Origin: a phage
DNA: 64,000 nt
Sequence record: PZ445446.1
Strand: one strand, 5' to 3'
The notes beneath the pieces are model-generated. The model saw nothing but the letters and a program-made list of their open reading frames with translations, was not told the DNA's origin and made no database searches. Of this stretch, positions 7,967-60,060 are shown piece by piece (positions within the stretch are counted from its first letter, which is position 1; the number at the start of each line of letters is the position of its first letter). Position numbers and translations under genes: made by a program.

Positions 7967-10900
7967 ATGCTTCCAATCCCTTTGCTAAAACTTGGTCGTC
8001 ATTTCCTCGATAAGAGGGGTGGAATTAAGGAACTTGCTGTTCTGTCATACCCAATAGACAACAGTGATGGTACAAGCAACACAGTATCCTATGTAAATAG
8101 CTTAGCTATACTTTTTGATGATGGTCAGCTTAATATTACTGGCTATAATAGGTTCGGAGAGTGTCGGACTGGAGATCTTGATACAATAAACTATCCTAAT
8201 GAGGCAGCTTGGAACGTAGACCATGTTTGGAGAGCTGACCGTGCATTTGTAATCCGCACATTCGATAATAAATTTTTCTATATTGGTTGCACAGCTGGTC
8301 TTATCGGATCGGAGGCAGCAGGTGGAAACGATGTTTGTGTCAGAGAGTGGACACCTTTGCCGGAACAGATCGTAACAGGGTTGCATTTGGACACCCATCC
8401 TGAGAGACTTGTTGAAGTAATGGGTGGCGTAAACAATACAGTGTGGGTAATTGCTGCACCAGAGGCTGATGGTATGCTTCACCTGTACGGCTCTGGCAAT
8501 AATACTTACGGCTCTCTTCATGTTGACAAAAATCAGCATGCAACCCCTGTAAAGATTGGTGAGACATCGGAAAATCCTGAAACAGGTCCTTGGAAAAACC
8601 CAAGCATCAACTGCGAGGTGCATGACAACTCTGTTATTTTCGGTGGTCCTAGAGGTTTCTGGATTGCTGGATACGACTTTCTGAGAAATAACAGTAGAAA
8701 CGACCTTGTTTGGCCTCCTGTGCAGATTACTCGTAACGATTTGAGGGGCATTCCTGCAGATGAGGAGTGGAAAGGGTTTATGTGCGGTCCTAACGGGGCA
8801 ATAATTGCCACACAGAGGATGCATAGACCCGATGACCAGCAGCTTGTTAACGTATTTTATGGTCAAAACATTTGGGGAGATGATACATGGCGGGAACTGA
8901 ATATCACCTACACCCATGAGGTAATAATGGCTCGTGGGTACGGCACAAGTGGCATTTTCTTCAATAATGGCACCAAGCAGTATCGTGGATTCTCTCGCAA
9001 CTTGTGTAATGATATTGGTGCACAATCTGCAAACAATAGTCCTAGGTCCGATTTTATCCACTATCAAGCTCTTGCTACAGCTAAATATGTTGAGCAACGC
9101 CTGCCAGTTAGCTGGACAGAGAGTGTTTATTTCCAAGGCATCCATAGAGAAGGTTTCTTAGGGACCTTTACTGTTGTTAATGGTAAACTTTGGTGGTCAG
9201 GCATCCCAAGGGGAAGTTTTGCAGGCTCTAACAACCTGTTTGGAGGCAGACTTAATAGCCAGGGGTTCACAGAGGTTCCTGAGAATTGGTATAAAAATGT
9301 CCCGGTAGACAGTTGGGGTGTTGAGGATATTTTCGACGTTAACGGTGTTAGCAGCGTTAGCAATATTTACATTGGTGACACGGTCAAGATGAAGTTGAAG
9401 CCTCAGCCAGAGGGGGCTACGTTCATTATTGACAAGATTGAACTGGTAAATGCTGCAGGTACGGTTGTTACAGATGCAAATTACCAATTCTCCACCAACT
9501 GGAACCACGGCGGGGCCAACGAAGTTGTTGTTACCCAGTATAACAGAAATGTTAACAGACGTGGCCTGTACTCTGTAAAAATAACCTATCATGACAAGCA
9601 TGGCACAGGCAGAACCCATACGACAAGGACTTTGAACTGGAACACCATAGTTCCTGCGTATCCGTCCAACGGCAAGTGGCATACTGTCGGTAGAAACAAA
9701 CAGTTCCATGTCAACGATACTGTATACTTCGGGCTTAACGCAGCTCAACCTGCTGTAGAAGGCGATACATCGTATATAGTACGACTCCATAGAATGGATG
9801 CCGGGTCTGTAACCTACGATGTGACTCAGGAGATCTACGATCAGAGACGTACCACGTATGACAATGTTGTGAAAACACAAGCCTTGTGGGAGTTCAACCC
9901 TAACGGCAGAGGCGGTAAAATGTTGCAGGTCAACGAGCAAAACGGGACATCGTTGACTGTCCATGAACATCCAGATCCTTGGCCTGATCCTGGAAAACCT
10001 AACTCTGGTGCTCGTACACTGAAAATTGTTAGCCATGATGCAGGATATTTCGGAATACGCTGGGAAGCCACAGTAAGATATGCCGACGGGACAACAAACA
10101 ACATAGGGATCACCCTTGATGGCACTAGTGAGGATAACTCCCTGAAAATTGCCTACACCCCTAGGGGCATCTCTATTGACAACATAGATGTTGTTCGCAA
10201 CGGTTACGGCGATGTGAATGTCAAAGTTACTCTTGGCGAACATCTTGGTGGGGAAAGGATCATCATGTATGCCTTTGATCATGATCCGCGCACCAATGGG
10301 ACTTATGCAAATCAGGCATGGAGTTATCTGATAAATGCACCTGAGCCGAATACTAAAGAGTTCTACTACGGTATGAAGCGAGATGTGTGCAAGAAAACAG
10401 GAACACATGACTGGATTGCTATCTGCGTTAAAGATGAGCGCACAGCTTGGGATGAGCCTGTTAACAGATGGTTCATAGGTATTCCTACCAGAAGTGATAA
10501 GTATGTCGCAGAATATATTGTATGCATGGGCGGTACCAACCTAAACATGTGTTGGAACGAAGATGTAAACAAATACTCTGATTATGACTATATGAGGGAT
10601 TACTCTTGTAATTTGTGGTTTAACCAAACTACAGGTTACCCTCCGCGTCAGGCAAGGGTAAATCCTGCAATCTTTACAGATACGCAGGTTTTCTTGACAA
10701 AACAGGCCAACGAGGTCCAGACCTTCAAGAACAAATACGACCCTAATAAGTGGTTCTATAACTGCTATGGGGCATTTTTCTGGGGACCTGGAGAATTACC
10801 TGGTGGTGGCTCTTGTTTTGAGGCTGCAACTTACGCCAGTGACAGATTTATGGGCCAGGTCAAGAAATACAAGATAATTCCAGGGCCTGAAACTTTAGGC

Positions 10901-46489: not shown

Positions 46490-46799
46490 TATTTTAAGTT
46501 ATCAGATTGCCAGAGATCAGGAGGATTTCTAAAATGGATTTCCTCCTTTTGATATTTTACCTACCAGGATATTTTAAAATCCTTAGAAAATCAGAAAATG
46601 GATCGAAAACTAAAATGGATTTTTCAGAGCAGGCACGACGAGATGAACCACTCATCCTATCGTCTGCACCATATTCCAGACCACCATTACAGATTTCCCG
46701 CACATGCTCACACCCTTCTACTAGAACTTCCCCCACTTACCCTTGACCTTTTATAGTAATAATCCAACCACTACCTTGAAGTTGTGGCGCAGCTTTCCA

Positions 46800-46887
46800 A
46801 GTACTCGATCTGTTTTTCGTTTCAAAGATTGAATTTTCTGAAAATTTTTCTCGATAAATTTCTCAGTACTCGATCTGTTTTTCGTTT
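46800..46887. repeat. 23-bp perfect direct repeat pair (agtactcgatctgtttttcgttt)
   Basis: Copies at 46800-46822 and 46865-46887; partial third copy near 46947-46963. Confidence 0.65.
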
Positions 46888-47090
46888 TCTGAATCGGATT
46901 TTCTGGAAATCGTTCCGGCTCTCGACCTGAAATTTTTGGGGACGAAATCGATTTTTCGTTTTCAGAAATGGATTTTTAAAATTTCTATATGGGAATATTT
47001 TAGTGGATACTATTTTATAGGAAATTGTTACGGAGGATAATTAGCGTGCTAATTAAATTTATTAAATGCGAGGAGTTCTCATTTAGAATT

Positions 47091-47109
47091 TTGAATGATA
47101 ATCATTCTC
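47091..47109. promoter_or_regulatory. Fur-box-like operator (15 of 19 to GATAATGATAATCATTATC)
   Basis: ttgaatgataatcattctc; overlaps candidate -10 hexamers. Confidence 0.5.
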
Positions 47110-47122
47110 GTTTGCAGAATAA

Positions 47123-47165
47123 CGGGCAGGCCCGGTGATTGTCTCCCGGCCCCTACTGCCCCGGC
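47123..47165. repeat. GC-rich structured repeat, copy 1 (core CCGGTGATTGTCTCCC)
   Basis: Follows Fur box A; flanking GGGCAG/CTGCCC can pair around core. Confidence 0.5.
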
Positions 47166-47226
47166 TTGTTATTATAGTAACACACAGGACAAAGAAAGCA
47201 AGAAGTTTTTGCATAAATTTTTAGAC

Positions 47227-47245
47227 GATAATGATAATCGTTCTC
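47227..47245. promoter_or_regulatory. Fur-box-like operator (17 of 19 to consensus)
   Basis: gataatgataatcgttctc; preceded by TTGCAT about 17 nt upstream, so box overlaps a candidate -10. Confidence 0.55.
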
Positions 47246-47254
47246 ATTTCATGC

Positions 47255-47300
47255 AGCGCCCATCCCCGGTGGTTGTCTCCCCCGTCACCGGTGCCTGCCG
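47255..47300. repeat. GC-rich structured repeat, copy 2 (core CCGGTGGTTGTCTCCC)
   Basis: Follows Fur box B; CCGGTG/CACCGG stem. Confidence 0.5.
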
Positions 47301-47509
47301 TCCTTTCGATAGGTATATTTTGCCACCTGGCGGGGCCGCTGTCAACACTTTTCAAAAAAAAAAAAAATTCTAACCTGATGCGCTGACCGCTGCAACCTGG
47401 CGGGGCCAGCCTGGCAGGGCCTAACTGACCAGGTAGGAGAGAATGAAGGCTTGCAAACCTGGTGGGCCTATGCTATAGGATAGGTAACAATTGAAGAGGA
47501 GGTACAAAA

Positions 47510-47647
47510 ATGGAAGGTAATATGATCCCCCTGGTTGAAAAGGCTATGGCGGGAGCGTTGGAACATAAAGAAGAGTACGAAAAAATGATGGTTAACCTGG
47601 CAGGGGCGGCGGCTGGAGAATTCTACCCAAAAAATAATTTTAACTAA
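47510..47647 (+). CDS. hypothetical small protein (45 aa)
   Basis: ATG 7 nt after GAAGAGGAGG RBS; first gene after the 1-kb noncoding region; absent from track. Confidence 0.35.
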   Translation: MEGNMIPLVEKAMAGALEHKEEYEKMMVNLAGAAAGEFYPKNNFN

Positions 47648-49591: not shown

Positions 49592-49837
49592 ATGGCAGCA
49601 CTAATCACCAAATATTATGCCCCTACCAACACCAAAAGCGCCCGTATCATGGTAAAAGGCTTCGGACGTAAAAAGGTGTACACCTGGGATTATGCCTTAG
49701 ACACGGAAGACAACTACACCAACGCGATGACCGATTTTATTAATGATCTGAACACGCGGATCTTGACAAATTATAAAATTACCGATATTGCCTATATAGG
49801 GGAAGGCGGGATCTGTTTTGTCGGTATCGTCAAATAA
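49592..49837 (+). CDS. hypothetical small protein
   Basis: 81 aa; downstream of repeat element 2. Confidence 0.5.
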   Translation: MAALITKYYAPTNTKSARIMVKGFGRKKVYTWDYALDTEDNYTNAMTDFINDLNTRILTNYKITDIAYIGEGGICFVGIVK

Positions 49838-49845
49838 GCTGTTTT

Positions 49846-49892
49846 TTCGGTGGTCCTGGTAGCAGGGCCATCTATAAAGATAGTTTATCAAT
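49846..49892 (+). repeat. degenerate fourth copy of inverted-repeat element
   Basis: ggtggtcctggtagcagggccatctataaagatagtttat keeps the 3' arm and AATAAAG-like tail but lacks TTGAC. Confidence 0.4.
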
Positions 49893-56167: not shown

Positions 56168-56226
56168 TCCTTATAAACTACAAAACAGGGCTTGCAATGG
56201 TCCTGTTTTTTGTTATACTTGTTTCA

Positions 56227-56273
56227 CGGCAGGCACCTGGCGACGGGGGGAGACAATCACCGGGTGTGCCTGC
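56227..56273. repeat. GC-rich structured repeat, copy 3 (inverted orientation)
   Basis: Reverse complement gives cacccggtgattgtctcccccc…ggtgcctgccg, matching copy 2; GGCAGGCAC/GTGCCTGC stem. Confidence 0.5.
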
Positions 56274-56295
56274 TATATAAAAATTATAAAAACCG

Positions 56296-56324
56296 TTGAC
56301 ATCTGCCAGGTGGTGGGGTAGCAT
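56296..56324 (+). promoter_or_regulatory. sigma70-type promoter TTGACA-N17-TAGCAT
   Basis: Upstream of ATG 56380; leader GGGGGCaaaaGCGCCC hairpin. Confidence 0.5.
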
Positions 56325-57586: not shown

Positions 57587-58200
57587 TGCTCTTCTCCTAC
57601 CATAAACGGCCCTACCTGGCAAGTGGAATAATTGACTAGCCATCAATCCCACATACTGTACAAATATACATGGAAAATAACTATTGCATAATTTTTCATT
57701 GTGTGGTAGCAAGTCCATTTTTACCCGTTTTCTCTCCCAAAAGTGCACGTAATGCCGCTATTGCACAAATTTTAACCTGATGCACATCTCCAATATCTTG
57801 TCAACAACTAAAAATCTTTATAAGTCATACACTTACACAGCATCGAAAGCGTGTTCTACGCGAAAAATCGAGTATAACTATAGCCGCCAGATCTCAGAAT
57901 TCACGTACGCACGCCATTCTATAGCCTGCAAAGTATTTATTCCAACCACAGAATAACGGAATAGTCAATACCTGCATAAAATAATTATTCGTGTAAACTG
58001 CATAACATAAATCAGCTCAGGTGTCAACATTTTTCGTAAACAGTCCGAAATTATCACGATGAGCTATCATAAACAGAGAAATATTTAGTCGTCTAATGTT
58101 TACTGTACATTACTATACTGACTGGAATCATTAGATGACTAAGAGAAAGATAAGAAATAATTAATAATGTAATTATTTTACCTGTAACAATAAGGCAACT

Positions 58201-58494
58201 ATGCAAACGAATGGCATGGCGCGACGGAGTCGCGACATAATATAAAAGCAGTAACCATCACCCCCGTGATAGTTTGTCTGCAAACTATTAATCAGATCAT
58301 AGTTGCCTTGTATTTAGTTAATCATGACATAACAAGCAAGGCAACTATAGATCTTCTAATAGTTGCCCTGCTTTTATATTATGTCATAGGAACGCCCGAA
58401 GGGGTGACCTAGTCACCTGGTATAGCCAGCGAAAGATTATTAACTTGTCGATTGTTATCTTGTTAATTGTTTTCATGCAAACGAATGGCATGGC
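58201..58494. repeat. 20-bp direct repeat pair (atgcaaacgaatggcatggc)
   Basis: Copies at 58201-58220 and 58475-58494. Confidence 0.6.
58234..58387. repeat. 18-bp perfect inverted repeat pair (gacataatataaaagcag / ctgcttttatattatgtc)
   Basis: Arms at 58234-58251 and 58370-58387. Confidence 0.6.
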
Positions 58495-60060
58495 TTATCA
58501 TCTATGCGTGAACAGTGAGGCATGCAATAGTAACAATTGTTATTGTATCCAGTGTGTTGAGTATGCCCAGTGTGTCACTATTATGTCATATTATGTCACA
58601 GTATGTCAGACAAGTTTTCCTCCTCTTTGTCAAGTGCTGCATGAAAAATTTACAAGCTTGTATGGTAGCATTTTTGCGGCCCTGTTTACATTCAGTGTTG
58701 TATGTATAATCCTTGTTGTGTGGGCGTTTAGACGTCTGGACGGTCAGAAGTTTGCAGGTCAATATCTAATCTATTGGCTGCTAACTATATCCCCCACAAA
58801 TAATAAGAAATATAATTGTTATGTGCGTAAACAGTAACCCATGTTATCAATCCCTGTATGTATCGCCAGTGGTGCGCATAATGGGTATTATGTTAAATTG
58901 CCCGTAATGATAACAGTTCTCACAATGATAGGTATTCTCATTCATCCACACAAAATAGGTTGCAAATGTTGTGCCACTGTGTGAACGGCCTGGCCTATTA
59001 ATTTCTCTCACTGCCTCGATATTTGAGAATTGTTATAAGAATGAGAAGTATTCCCATTCCGTCCGCCTGGCAGCACTCCAGTAGCTACCGGCTCCTGACA
59101 GGGCAGCACTCCTGTAGGTCAGGTCAAAATCGTGGTAGAATTGGGCCTGTTCAGATATTTCTGACTGACTCTTCAGATCTGTGTGGGAAAAGCCAACCTC
59201 TCCGGAGGGGCAGGGGAGGTCAATTAAAAAATTTACGTGGTGTATGAAGCGCTCTTCAGGTAAGGCATGTATTATGGGATGAAACCCTCTTCAGGCAATG
59301 ATATTTGTGGGTGTGATATTTGCTGGAAAGCCAGATATGACGGGACTCCCGGCGGGGATGGGGTAGTACAGACAGGGAAAATATGGGGATGTAGTTGGGT
59401 AAATTGATCAGACAGGTAGAGTATGGAATATGTTACAAGTATGTTAAATAGGGAGGATGAATATCTGCAGGATTTGTGTGTAAAATCAAAGACTTAAGTG
59501 GTGTTGTGGTATTTTCTATAAATAATTCAAGTTTAATAGGTAATATTTGTCTCTATCCACTTTGTGTGGTAAACAGATTCAGATGAAATTGGTTTACAAG
59601 TGTATACATAATATACAAATTAAAGATACAAGAAACCCCCCTCCCCCTTCGGCTACCATTCACCTTTTCCTCTGACTGGTACTTAAACACTTATTCAGAC
59701 TCTTCAGGTTATCACCCATATATCATATGGCAGTGACTGGTGTCCTCCGGCCCCTCTTTCGTCACCCGTCCGCTTCGCCATGCTAATGCCATAGCCAATG
59801 GTTCGGTTGTTCACTCTGTTCACTCAGGTGTATCTCCATACCCCTTCAAACCGAAGAGAACAGAAAACCCGAATTACTCGGTAAAAGAAAAGAGAAGAAC
59901 TTAATTTTATCAGGATAGGCAAGAATGTCAAGGCATGACTGCTCACTAAACAAGCAAACAGTCATGTGTGGAAGGTAAGTGATTGTGGTGGTGGGAAATT
60001 TAGTTGAAAGATGTGTTATAGGTGCGCTTCCAGCACTTTGGCCGGGCAGCTAATTGTGTG

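Follow-up and report, generated by a model that had tools for sequence, protein, structure and literature searches.

The question raised by this locus is what two close matches to the Fur box are doing in a stretch of virulent-phage DNA that carries no genes. The locus lies in PZ445446.1, a 64,000-nt window (the whole stretch of DNA analysed) that is from an rV5-like Vequintavirus, a virulent coliphage. A preliminary description had reported matches of 15/19 and 17/19 positions to the enterobacterial Fur consensus GATAATGATAATCATTATC at positions 47091-47109 (ttgaatgataatcattctc) and 47227-47245 (gataatgataatcgttctc), and both sequences and coordinates proved exact. The two sites are the top two consensus matches in the window on both strands (the next is 14/19), and they compare with best matches of 12-16/19 at eight E. 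coli K-12 Fur promoters (fepA-fes 13, entS 16, entC 15, fhuA 14, ryhB 16, fecI 15, fecA 12, and cirA 14). The same description had proposed matrix scoring as a check, and we used a palindromic, 19-bp Fur matrix built from the eight K-12 promoters. In a 9-1-9 register, box 1 (AATGATAATCATTCTCGTT, 47094..47112) and box 2 (AATGATAATCGTTCTCATT, 47230..47248) score 24.6 bits each, as compared to 12.4-25.2 bits for the training sites (5.7-23.9 bits in leave-one-out), on a matrix that serves as a calibration, not as an independent model, because it derives from only eight promoters and is consensus-seeded. Both sites score above the best site of every one of 200 shuffled windows (mean 15.1 +/- 2.0 bits; maximum 23.4 bits).

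Further features of the two sites are those of Fur operators. The likeness to the E. coli fhuA and ryhB operators (fhuA, TATAATAATCATTCTCGTT; ryhB, AATAATAATCATTCTCATT; compared to AATGATAATCATTCTCGTT of the phage) extends across the 19-bp dyad and includes the right half ATTCTC of box 1, which is the half-site of both K-12 boxes, and the phage scores are equal or higher; Chen et al. report that Fur shifts oligonucleotides bearing the predicted fhuA and ryhB sites in gels (PMC2189734). Box 2 is overlapped by a second site at a 6-bp offset (47224-47242; 16.1 bits), an arrangement also shown by natural Fur clusters (PMC2189734); at the same offset, box 1 has only a weak site (47088; 11.9 bits). 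A degenerate box, AATGCGAGGAGTTCTCATT (47065..47083; 10.1 bits), is located exactly 29 bp upstream of box 1, in phase with the box arrays of relatives. The boxes and their surroundings are imperfect direct repeats about 130 bp apart, as had been claimed: one repeat pair, 47094-47113 and 47230-47249, is 90% identical with a spacing of 136 bp, and a second pair, 47131-47147 and 47265-47281, is 94% identical with a spacing of 134 bp. Eight of the 11 positions in the window that score at least 14 bits fall inside two gene-free regions that comprise ~4% of the window; three weaker Fur-like boxes (16-17 bits; 58906, 58924, and 59040, within 58906..59058) lie in a direct terminal repeat of 459 bp inferred by homology mapping to the repeat_region of phage Gotham. 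We conclude that, by all sequence tests available, both sites are Fur-type operators and not chance AT-rich matches.

The description of the surroundings as a 1-kb noncoding region was also borne out: no credible ORF is present at 46490-47509, and genes are likewise lacking from the counterpart of this region in every relative. The reading that the matches are chance AT-rich matches or belong to a real coding gene centers on ORF 47095-47373 (92 aa). This frame runs through both units and is also open in the close relative L019, and the annotation of BASEL phage MaxBurger, with 99.7% identity here, lists it as a hypothetical protein, one of four CDS placed across the region. However, conservation peaks at the boxes, not along the ORF, and the ORF was rejected as a gene on further grounds: no ribosome-binding site precedes its ATG, which falls inside box 1; the indels that distinguish relatives are not multiples of three nucleotides; and other annotators placed no genes here. 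We give the chance-or-coding reading next to no credence.

Comparison with related phages, another check that had been proposed, showed that box position is kept across distantly related virulent phages. Box 1 is conserved in all relatives. Across Vequintavirinae and Stephanstirmvirinae, no other non-coding block is as conserved as box 1 together with its GC-rich neighbor (hereafter ‘module’), and the two are still alignable in Certrevirus, Seunavirus, Mydovirus, Phapecoctavirus, and Serratia and Aeromonas phages, with 70-88% identity of module copy 1 in distant genera. The box-to-module distance shows no indels in ~20 distinct full-length units aligned. The number of boxes ranges from one to 4-5 per relative, with a spacing of exactly 29 bp (phiTE, phAPEC8, CR8, KaOmega, BIS47, Kashira, and EC152) and unrelated 10-bp spacers, and the sites at the 29-bp-phased positions score 18-23 bits. 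Box 2 in other rV5-like phages has GATAAC and still scores 22.7 and 19.6 bits (overlapping pair of L019); the box of W70 scores only 15.5 bits. The family consensus, AATGAgAATCATTCTCATT, given also as AATGA(T/G)AATCATTCTCATT, is dyad-symmetric and occurs in over 20 lineages. It is identical to the Fur consensus published for Xanthomonas (AATGAgAATcATTctCATT; PMC1790865), and the Fur box of Enterococcus faecalis (TGAGAATGATTCTCA; PMC6056675) lies within it.

A phage-encoded dimeric DNA-binding protein could also use palindromic AT-rich sites, in which case the likeness to Fur boxes would reflect convergence. Conservation of a palindrome does not identify its binder, the family consensus favors GAGAAT whereas the enterobacterial optimum is GATAAT, and many neighboring early ORFs have no assigned function (Pfam and PHROGs returned nothing useful for 19 flanking proteins of the window and relatives). 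However, the match covers the full 19 bp and is identical to published Fur consensus sequences, and the same boxes also occur in unrelated phages that share hosts and are not expected to share regulators (T5 and a 345,809-bp contig). In addition, tblastn searches detected no Fur homologue in any Vequintavirinae or Stephanstirmvirinae record, and, since these phages encode no Fur, any Fur-family binder would be the host's. We regard the reading as operators for a phage-encoded protein as decidedly improbable, and we favor the reading as predicted operators for host Fur, kept by selection, to which host Fur would bind. Capture of the unit from a host was considered and rejected: none of 5,426 E. 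coli genomes has sequence similar to the unit, and a search of 185,579 species-representative genomes of bacteria and archaea did not find the box-module junction pattern.

The modules are ~55 nt in length, and each box lies 5-10 bp past the 3' side of its module. Module copy 1 (47115..47167, minus strand; inferred sense strand ...CCGGGAGACAATCACCGGGCCTGCCCGTTATTCTG) scores 47.9 bits with a profile whose training set includes this sequence, and module copy 2 (47255..47301, minus strand) scores 27.3 bits (E = 2.7e-7). A third unit (56192..56276, plus strand) comprises a promoter, TTGCAA-16-TATACT (56192-56219), followed by module copy 3 (56238-56276; 27.6 bits; E = 2.3e-7), which was absent from the training set and after which there is no Fur box. 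The preliminary description had called the elements that follow the boxes GC-rich and structured. The first attribute stands (66-72% GC, in conserved elements), and the second stands only for copy 2, which folds modestly better than shuffled sequences (hairpin z = -2.33 for the minus strand and -1.89 for the plus strand); copy 1 does not fold better than shuffles (z = -0.71 for the minus strand and +0.15 for the plus strand). The copy 3 hairpin has z = -3.35, and module z-scores overall range from -3.4 to +0.7. At the level of the family, no consensus structure was obtained by RNAalifold, with the MAFFT alignment or with the profile alignment, and no covariation was obtained with a hand-drawn two-helix model, for which 69.4% of cells are paired, as compared to 69.0% in shuffles. 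Because structure is weak, the module could act as DNA.

A known RNA family was rejected for the modules: Rfam, at E <= 1, has no match over either module or either box, on either strand, and no match at all in seven relatives. The only two Rfam matches in this region of the window are at 49824-49885 and 46892-46981. A mimic of the pseudo-ToxI type, suggested by kinship to phiTE and by a ToxI-like loop, GGTGATTGTCTCC, was ruled out by position: the phiTE escape locus is at 106.7 kb, and the phiTE homologue of the box region is at 39.6 kb.

The direction in which the modules are transcribed bears directly on what the boxes would control. The preliminary description had read the boxes as overlapping iron-responsive plus-strand promoters that drive short, structured, RyhB-style RNAs rightward, de-repressed at low iron. 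The statement that each box overlaps a plausible -10 element is literally true, because GATAAT hexamers belong to any Fur box, but a sigma-70 scan returned no promoter that overlaps a box. The two plus-strand candidates, TTGAAT-18-CAGAAT (47091..47120), the spacer of which is filled by box 1, and TTGCAT-18-GATAAT (47209..47238), the -10 element of which lies inside box 2, both match at 8/12 positions and were not reported by the scan. In favor of the RyhB-style reading, GATAAT hexamers are present in both boxes with -35-like TTGAAT and TTGCAT 18 bp upstream, TTG just outside the proximal box is kept in most relatives, TTGCAT is kept in paralogous copies (Mydovirus and L030), and a very similar box at K-12 ryhB abuts the annotated 5' end of the RNA. 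However, the putative -10 elements are not kept: position 2 at box 1 varies among relatives (CGGAAT, CTGAAT, and TGGAAT in place of CAGAAT), and the -10 element at box 2 is replaced by GAGAGT, GCGAGT, or GATAAC. In addition, a start 7 nt past CAGAAT would land inside the outer stem of the hairpin, no terminator-like site adjoins either module on either strand, no Rfam family is matched, and, in box-free module copies, the promoter is on the other side. The likeness to RyhB and PrrF thus extends to a Fur box (here high-scoring and predicted) beside a short conserved non-coding segment, but not to sequence or Rfam kinship, a terminator, or conserved structure, and promoter placement suggests transcription toward the box. 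We consider the RyhB-style reading unlikely.

Placement of promoters points instead to leftward transcription. Module copy 3, which is box-free and lies in the opposite orientation behind a plus-strand promoter, fixes the sense strand of the module, and, taken together with the sigma-70 promoters that all relatives have on the far side of the module, makes it most likely that modules 1 and 2 are transcribed leftward. Among the 23 confirmed module copies listed (relatives plus window), 20 have a sigma-70-like promoter, on the strand on which motif GGAGACAAWCACC reads, whose -10 element ends 24-29 nt ahead of the motif; in the remaining three, this distance is 36 or 49 nt. For three of three window copies, folding is more favorable by 2.2-3.5 kcal/mol on the inferred sense strand, and, in the outer helix on that strand, G-U pairs outnumber A-C pairs 23 to 12, a weak strand signal. 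For unit 2, a minus-strand sigma-70 promoter, TTGACA-17-CAAAAT with TG (47317..47345; 10/12 in the scan), with a T14 tract upstream, aims at module 2 and box 2, and its equivalent is found in relatives with differing spacers. Transcription is predicted to start near 47310, which would place box 2 at about +62 to +80. For unit 1, a weaker minus-strand promoter, TTGCTT-19-TATAAT or TTGCTT-17-ACTATA (47171..47201), aims at module 1 and box 1. This promoter is poor here, having a 19-nt spacer; relatives have TTGCAA-17-TATATT, TTGATC-16-TATTAT, and similar sequences at the same place, with unrelated spacers. A predicted start near 47165 would place box 1 at about +53 to +71. The modules are thus most likely transcribed on the minus strand, from 47345..47317 and ~47201..47171, into the boxes. 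Downstream of the modules, the minus strand has no gene and no terminator. In unit 2, the overlap of the converging promoters would be ~65 bp.

The best model we can offer for these observations is that Fur gates transcription through the gene-free region, by roadblock and/or by repression of weak antisense promoters, a model that we hold tentatively, at somewhat less than an even chance. According to the model, host RNA polymerase would transcribe each module on the minus strand from a sigma-70 promoter belonging to that module. In iron-replete cells, Fur-Fe2+ occupying about +53 to +80 would stop or shorten the leftward non-coding transcripts, and the weak rightward promoters, which overlap the boxes and are directed against those of the modules, would be silenced as well. 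Under iron limitation, transcription would pass the boxes into the iteron-like repeats to their left, and/or antisense transcription would start. Such iron-dependent read-through or antisense initiation would couple the early program of the phage to the iron status of the host.

The geometry proposed differs from that of host operators. Host Fur boxes overlap the -35 element, the -10 element, or the +1 position of the repressed gene. At ryhB, the box adjoins the annotated RNA 5' end, whereas the phage boxes overlap no convincing promoter, lie ~53-80 bp downstream of opposite-strand promoters, and have counterparts in relatives that form 29-bp-phased arrays, unlike fhuA and ryhB. Roadblock repression is established for lac O2, for PurR at purB, and for CodY, and a face-to-face promoter switch is established for pR and pL of coliphage 186; the likeness to these systems (an operator tens of bp past the start, and promoters that converge) is one of geometry only, and we know of no precedent for roadblock repression by Fur.

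The second part of the preliminary interpretation, that the boxes are Fur decoys, would give them no role in cis: the boxes would soak up Fur during phage replication and thereby de-repress host iron uptake. The site scores match those of the best host operators, relatives have up to 4-5 boxes per array, and the terminal repeat, like intergenic regions elsewhere, contains more boxes. Stojiljkovic et al. (1994) reportedly found, with the Fur titration assay, that a single box on a multicopy plasmid suffices to de-repress the regulon. Iron taken up as a result could, for example, feed the iron-dependent ribonucleotide reductases that rV5-like phages encode. However, a decoy needs no fixed neighbor, yet the box-module distance is indel-free in ~20 units and the 29-bp phasing is kept; the window has just two strong boxes; and Fur, with thousands of copies in each cell, is an abundant protein. 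We think it unlikely that the boxes are decoys and nothing else. Under the Fur-gating model, titration would probably occur as a side effect: boxes that score like the best host sites and that multiply with the replicating genome should titrate Fur, which would partly de-repress the host iron regulon.

A further possibility arises from where the region lies. The gene-free region is ~1 kb in length, repeat-rich, and syntenic across the family, and, by homology mapping, it lies ~12 kb (~8.8% of the genome) from the terminal-repeat genome end. To the left of the boxes are three iteron-like direct repeats of 65-74 bp (46791..46976; core GTACTCGATCTGTTTTTCGTTT), and repeats akin to iterons, CTCGATCG followed by T-tracts, are present at the equivalent place in all relatives. 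The module promoters would face the boxes and be directed inward, with the nearer genome end behind them. These features suggest that the boxes could belong to a nucleoprotein site that acts in cis in DNA handling (an entry stop or checkpoint, or a replication origin) and not in transcription, and that is assembled from pre-existing host proteins. Such a site would resemble the untranslated injection-stop (iss) region of T5. The T5 region is likewise a large, gene-free, repeat-rich region at a conserved place, ~8-9% from the genome end (stop region at 7.9%), and likewise contains an array of high-scoring Fur-type boxes beside other repeats: positions 9473-9636, annotated only as repeats and palindromes, contain Fur-type boxes of 21.9, 26.6, and 21.7 bits, on a level with the scores observed here. 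The same Fur-box array is present in two contigs that look T5-like by size and by their paired DnaA boxes, and Fur-type boxes are also present in the 345,809-bp contig. In T5, DnaA boxes are paired and the terminal repeat is 10 kb long, and the paper that describes these features makes no mention of Fur (10.1101/866236). In contrast, there is no DnaA box (TTWTNCACA) at 46.5-47.5 kb, and the whole window has three, as compared to 8.6 expected by chance; the terminal repeat here is ~459 bp, as compared to 10 kb; and two-step entry is a feature of T5. The likeness is positional only. No link is known between Fur and DNA entry or replication. We judge the DNA-handling reading to be improbable.

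A bolder proposal would join the two systems: Fur-box arrays might be a shared, unrecognised block of cis-acting untranslated regions in unrelated virulent phages (rV5-like phages, T5 and its relatives, and the 345,809-bp contig, among others), at which pre-existing host Fur would act as a checkpoint on entering DNA, stopping inward transcription from facing sigma-70 promoters, and possibly entry itself, until conditions or early products release it, such that T5 and the rV5-like phages would have one iron-gated device. We regard this proposal as a long shot. What stops T5 DNA entry is a question about fifty years old, and the match of the T5 iss repeats and palindromes to Fur boxes would offer a candidate host factor for the entry stop.

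Fur operators are textbook bacterial elements, and, to our knowledge, phage-borne Fur operators are known only before prophage cargo genes. Shiga-toxin phages have a Fur box before stx1. Lambdoid coliphages have a Fur box before the cargo genes sitABCD (PMC6969025). The likeness of those boxes to the ones analysed here is that of a host Fur operator on phage DNA, through which a phage-borne function follows host iron; there, the operators serve accessory, host-benefit genes at ordinary promoters of temperate phages, whereas the boxes of the virulent phage analysed here control no protein gene and lie in a conserved gene-free control region. The searchable literature yielded nothing relevant on Fur boxes in rV5-like, lytic, or T5 phages or on Vequintavirus transcriptomes, in keeping with the view of the preliminary description that a link to iron and Fur, itself predicted, would be unusual for a lytic phage. 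Here, predicted Fur boxes that score as high as the best host sites recur across several genera of virulent phages, in phased arrays and tied to a small non-coding promoter unit.

The phage may, by this analysis, read or perturb the iron status of its host. If Fur binds, the boxes would link the early program of a lytic phage directly to the iron status of its host or, alternatively, would let the phage induce iron uptake by the host. Because gut iron is limiting and rV5-like phages are candidates for therapy, either outcome is relevant. The tandem arrangement is dispensable: phage AlexBoehm, which has lost one unit through recombination between two modules, is viable with the unit that remains, and it offers a natural single-unit variant.

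The two 19-mers at 47091-47109 (box 1; 9-1-9 register 47094-47112) and 47227-47245 (box 2; 47230-47248), positioned exactly as in the preliminary description, are the top two matches in the window to GATAATGATAATCATTATC (15/19 and 17/19, respectively; runner-up, 14/19). For calibration, eight E. coli K-12 promoter regions under Fur control have best consensus matches of 12-16/19. On a palindromic matrix derived from the top site of each of these eight K-12 promoters, both phage boxes score 24.6 bits, compared with 12.4-25.2 bits for the training sites (5.7-23.9 bits leave-one-out); the best sites in 200 shuffled windows score 15.1 ± 2.0 bits on average, with a maximum of 23.4 bits. The right half-site of the phage box, ATTCTC, which had initially been tallied as a mismatch, is the half-site used by the K-12 fhuA and ryhB operators, and oligonucleotides carrying predicted fhuA and ryhB sites gel-shift with Fur (Chen et al., PMC2189734). 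The two units, each consisting of a box and its adjoining GC-rich module, are, as had been noticed, direct repeats; they are paralogous, with a spacing of 134-136 bp. A decayed box (10.1 bits) is present exactly at -29 from box 1. The results confirm the original Fur-box observation overall and show matches far above chance.

A sensitive BLAST search with 47040-47330 matched 250 phage records. For distant genera, the alignment is limited to box 1 and the start of the GC-rich segment (47091 to ~47150; 70-88% identity); the aligning phages are Certrevirus, Seunavirus, Mydovirus, Phapecoctavirus (Stephanstirmvirinae), and Serratia and Aeromonas phages. Comparison of loci from ten distant relatives obtained by BLAST, and further ones from IMG/VR, shows that the element is located in a ~1-kb gene-free region, downstream of iteron-like repeats, in all compared loci. 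In the relatives, the proximal box is AATGA(T/G)AATCATTCTCATT, and the distance between the proximal box and the GC-rich segment is free of insertions. One to four boxes are present per relative, with a start-to-start spacing of exactly 29 bp: three each in phiTE (1446/1475/1504), phAPEC8 (1483/1512/1541) and CR8 (1446/1475/1504), and two each in BIS47, Kashira and EC152. These phased sites score 18-23 bits, and the 10-bp spacers between them are unrelated in sequence. The palindrome recurs among published Fur boxes: AATGAgAATcATTctCATT is the consensus for Xanthomonas campestris (PMC1790865), and TGAGAATGATTCTCA is the box given upstream of Fur-regulated E. faecalis operons (PMC6056675). We conclude, from sequence and conservation, which support the Fur part of the preliminary interpretation well, that the boxes are Fur-type operators under selection. 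No Fur homologue is encoded in the related phages, any Fur-family binder of the boxes would be the host's, and the box-module unit was not found in E. coli genomes or in one genome per bacterial species. In phage AlexBoehm (L037), compared with window positions 47139-47272, a natural deletion joins module 1 to module 2, taking out box 2 and the inter-unit sequence and retaining one box; the units are fused through recombination within the modules. Because AlexBoehm keeps a single unit, the tandem arrangement is dispensable, and AlexBoehm constitutes a ready-made single-unit variant.

The boxes had also been proposed to act as promoters that fire to the right, into the GC-rich elements, which is contradicted on three grounds. 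First, the plus-strand candidates, TTGAAT-18-CAGAAT and TTGCAT-18-GATAAT, match at 8/12 each and are absent from the output of a promoter scan, and the critical second position of the putative plus-strand -10 is variable in relatives; the scan reports a minus-strand promoter, TTGACA-17-CAAAAT with TG (47345..47317), directly right of module 2. Second, a module-profile search of the window finds exactly three copies: copies 1 (47115-47167) and 2 (47255-47301), both on the minus strand, and copy 3 (56238-56276; E = 2.3e-7, outside the set from which the profile was built), which is on the plus strand, opposite to copies 1 and 2, has no Fur box, and starts 18 bp past the plus-strand promoter TTGCAA-16-TATACT (56192-56219). 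Third, for 20 of 23 confirmed copies in relatives and window, two of them box-free, the conserved motif GGAGACAAWCACC is preceded on the motif-reading strand by a sigma-70-like promoter whose end is 24-29 nt away (36 or 49 nt for the remaining three); the hexamers of the module promoters are conserved and the spacers divergent. These findings indicate that modules 1 and 2 most probably have the minus strand as their sense strand; the boxes would then lie downstream on that strand, at ~+53 to +71 (unit 1) and ~+62 to +80 (unit 2). Folding favours the same sense strand by 2.2-3.5 kcal/mol in all three window copies, a small but consistent difference.

The module is not well supported as an RNA structure: folding z-scores range from -3.4 to +0.7 (the copy 3 hairpin being the most stable of the three, z = -3.35), RNAalifold yields no consensus structure for the module, module covariation does not exceed that in shuffles, Rfam has no match over modules or boxes, and a terminator scan finds none at the modules. 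The part of the preliminary description that invoked promoters with small RNAs is not supported, and its direction is probably reversed. The promoter-proximal module has the motif GGAGACAATCACC, and a second promoter, TTGACA-17-TAGCAT (56296-56324), follows copy 3. Mydovirus and some other relatives (L014, L024, L029/L025, L030, L017, L022) carry an inverted paralogous module ~7 kb away (loop GGAGGAAAGCCACC), behind TTGCTT-17-TATTCT and with a weak Fur-like box after it (10.1-13.4 bits in Mydovirus loci L014, L024 and L029; 21.7 bits in L030); more box-free copies are present behind strong promoters at position 428 of L014 and position 3926 of L030.

Host Fur quite likely binds the phage boxes. 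The boxes may serve as Fur decoys, as had also been suggested, and whichever role is primary, the replicating genome is likely to titrate Fur as a result. We think that Fur binding is selected for a local, cis-acting effect; a cis-acting role is favoured by the conservation of both the box-module distance and the 29-bp phasing. According to one cis-acting mechanism, Fur would block leftward RNA polymerase started at the module promoters; according to another, Fur would repress weak promoters overlapping the boxes and directed rightward, against the module promoters. The two mechanisms would be compatible, both would be allowed by the geometry (in unit 2, opposing start sites would be ~65 bp apart), and either would render the output of the non-coding units iron-dependent. 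Leftward read-through past the boxes would meet nothing but an AT-rich hairpin, the iterons and the upstream gene's 3' end.

Positions 46500-47520 share 99.7% identity with Escherichia phage MaxBurger and match 121 phage records, chiefly rV5-like Vequintavirus; rV5 has been described as lytic, with a "box" of ORF-free DNA (PMC3606486). The gene-free stretch spans 46490-47509, and the credible genes flanking it are all small plus-strand ORFs of unassigned function. The MaxBurger annotation places four hypothetical CDS over this region, probably an over-annotation, and 16-18 records titled 'Campylobacter phage', 94-100% identical to this coliphage region by BLAST, probably represent mislabelled or contaminant assemblies. 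Iteron-like repeats of 65-74 bp (GTACTCGATCTGTTTTTCGTTT...) occur three times and TTTCTAAAATGGATTT four times (46791-46976 and 46526-46622), with related CTCGATCG/T-tract repeats at the same place in all relatives; the iteron-like repeats may belong, as binding sites, to an origin or other cis-acting site. A further motif, (A/C)CCTGGCGGGGCC, occurs at 47324-47472, 47594-47610 and 56300-56320 (five copies are to the right of unit 2) and also within sigma-70-like promoter spacers on both strands (e.g. TTGACAgcggccccgccaggtggCAAAAT, TTGACAtctgccaggtggtggggTAGCAT); it contains CCWGG, the Dcm methylation site. In the majority of distant relatives (L002-L008, L010 and L011), a second conserved non-coding element of ~110 nt (ACCGGCGATCCACCTTCCGACCTGG...GTTAGCCCCGCCTTTTCGCCGTGGGGTGGCG), with its own minus-strand promoter, two TCTTTACA repeats and no Rfam match, lies to the right of the box-module unit at a distance of ~100-250 bp; in Vequintavirus, the second box-module unit replaces it.

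A search for perfect 9-1-9 boxes in IMG/VR returned at least 120 loci; among the matches listed, Fur-box arrays occur in two contigs resembling T5 in size and in paired DnaA boxes, a 345,809-bp contig, and others. In the T5-like-looking contigs (L052, L063), paired DnaA boxes adjoin arrays of 5-7 Fur boxes. In the untranslated injection-stop region of T5 itself (AY587007.1), strong Fur-type boxes make up the annotated palindromes E, G, H and I and copies 1-4 of 'direct repeat C'; at 9473-9636 they score 21.9, 26.6 and 21.7 bits, with additional overlapping sites, and the 7.9% nick lies immediately to their right. A detailed published study of the region treats DnaA boxes and nowhere mentions Fur (10.1101/866236). 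DnaA boxes were not found at 46.5-47.5 kb of the window, so the parallel with T5 is partial.

Homology with the 459-bp repeat_region in phage Gotham puts the inferred direct terminal repeat at ~58609-59067, inside the window's second gene-free region (~57960-59700). With the terminal repeat mapped there, ~12 kb (~8.8% of genome length) separates the Fur/iteron region from that end, in agreement with its location at 11-13 kb in several rV5-like records besides this one. The terminal repeat has weaker Fur-like boxes (16-17 bits) at 58906, 58924 and 59040, and several public rV5-like records begin or finish within 57960-59700.
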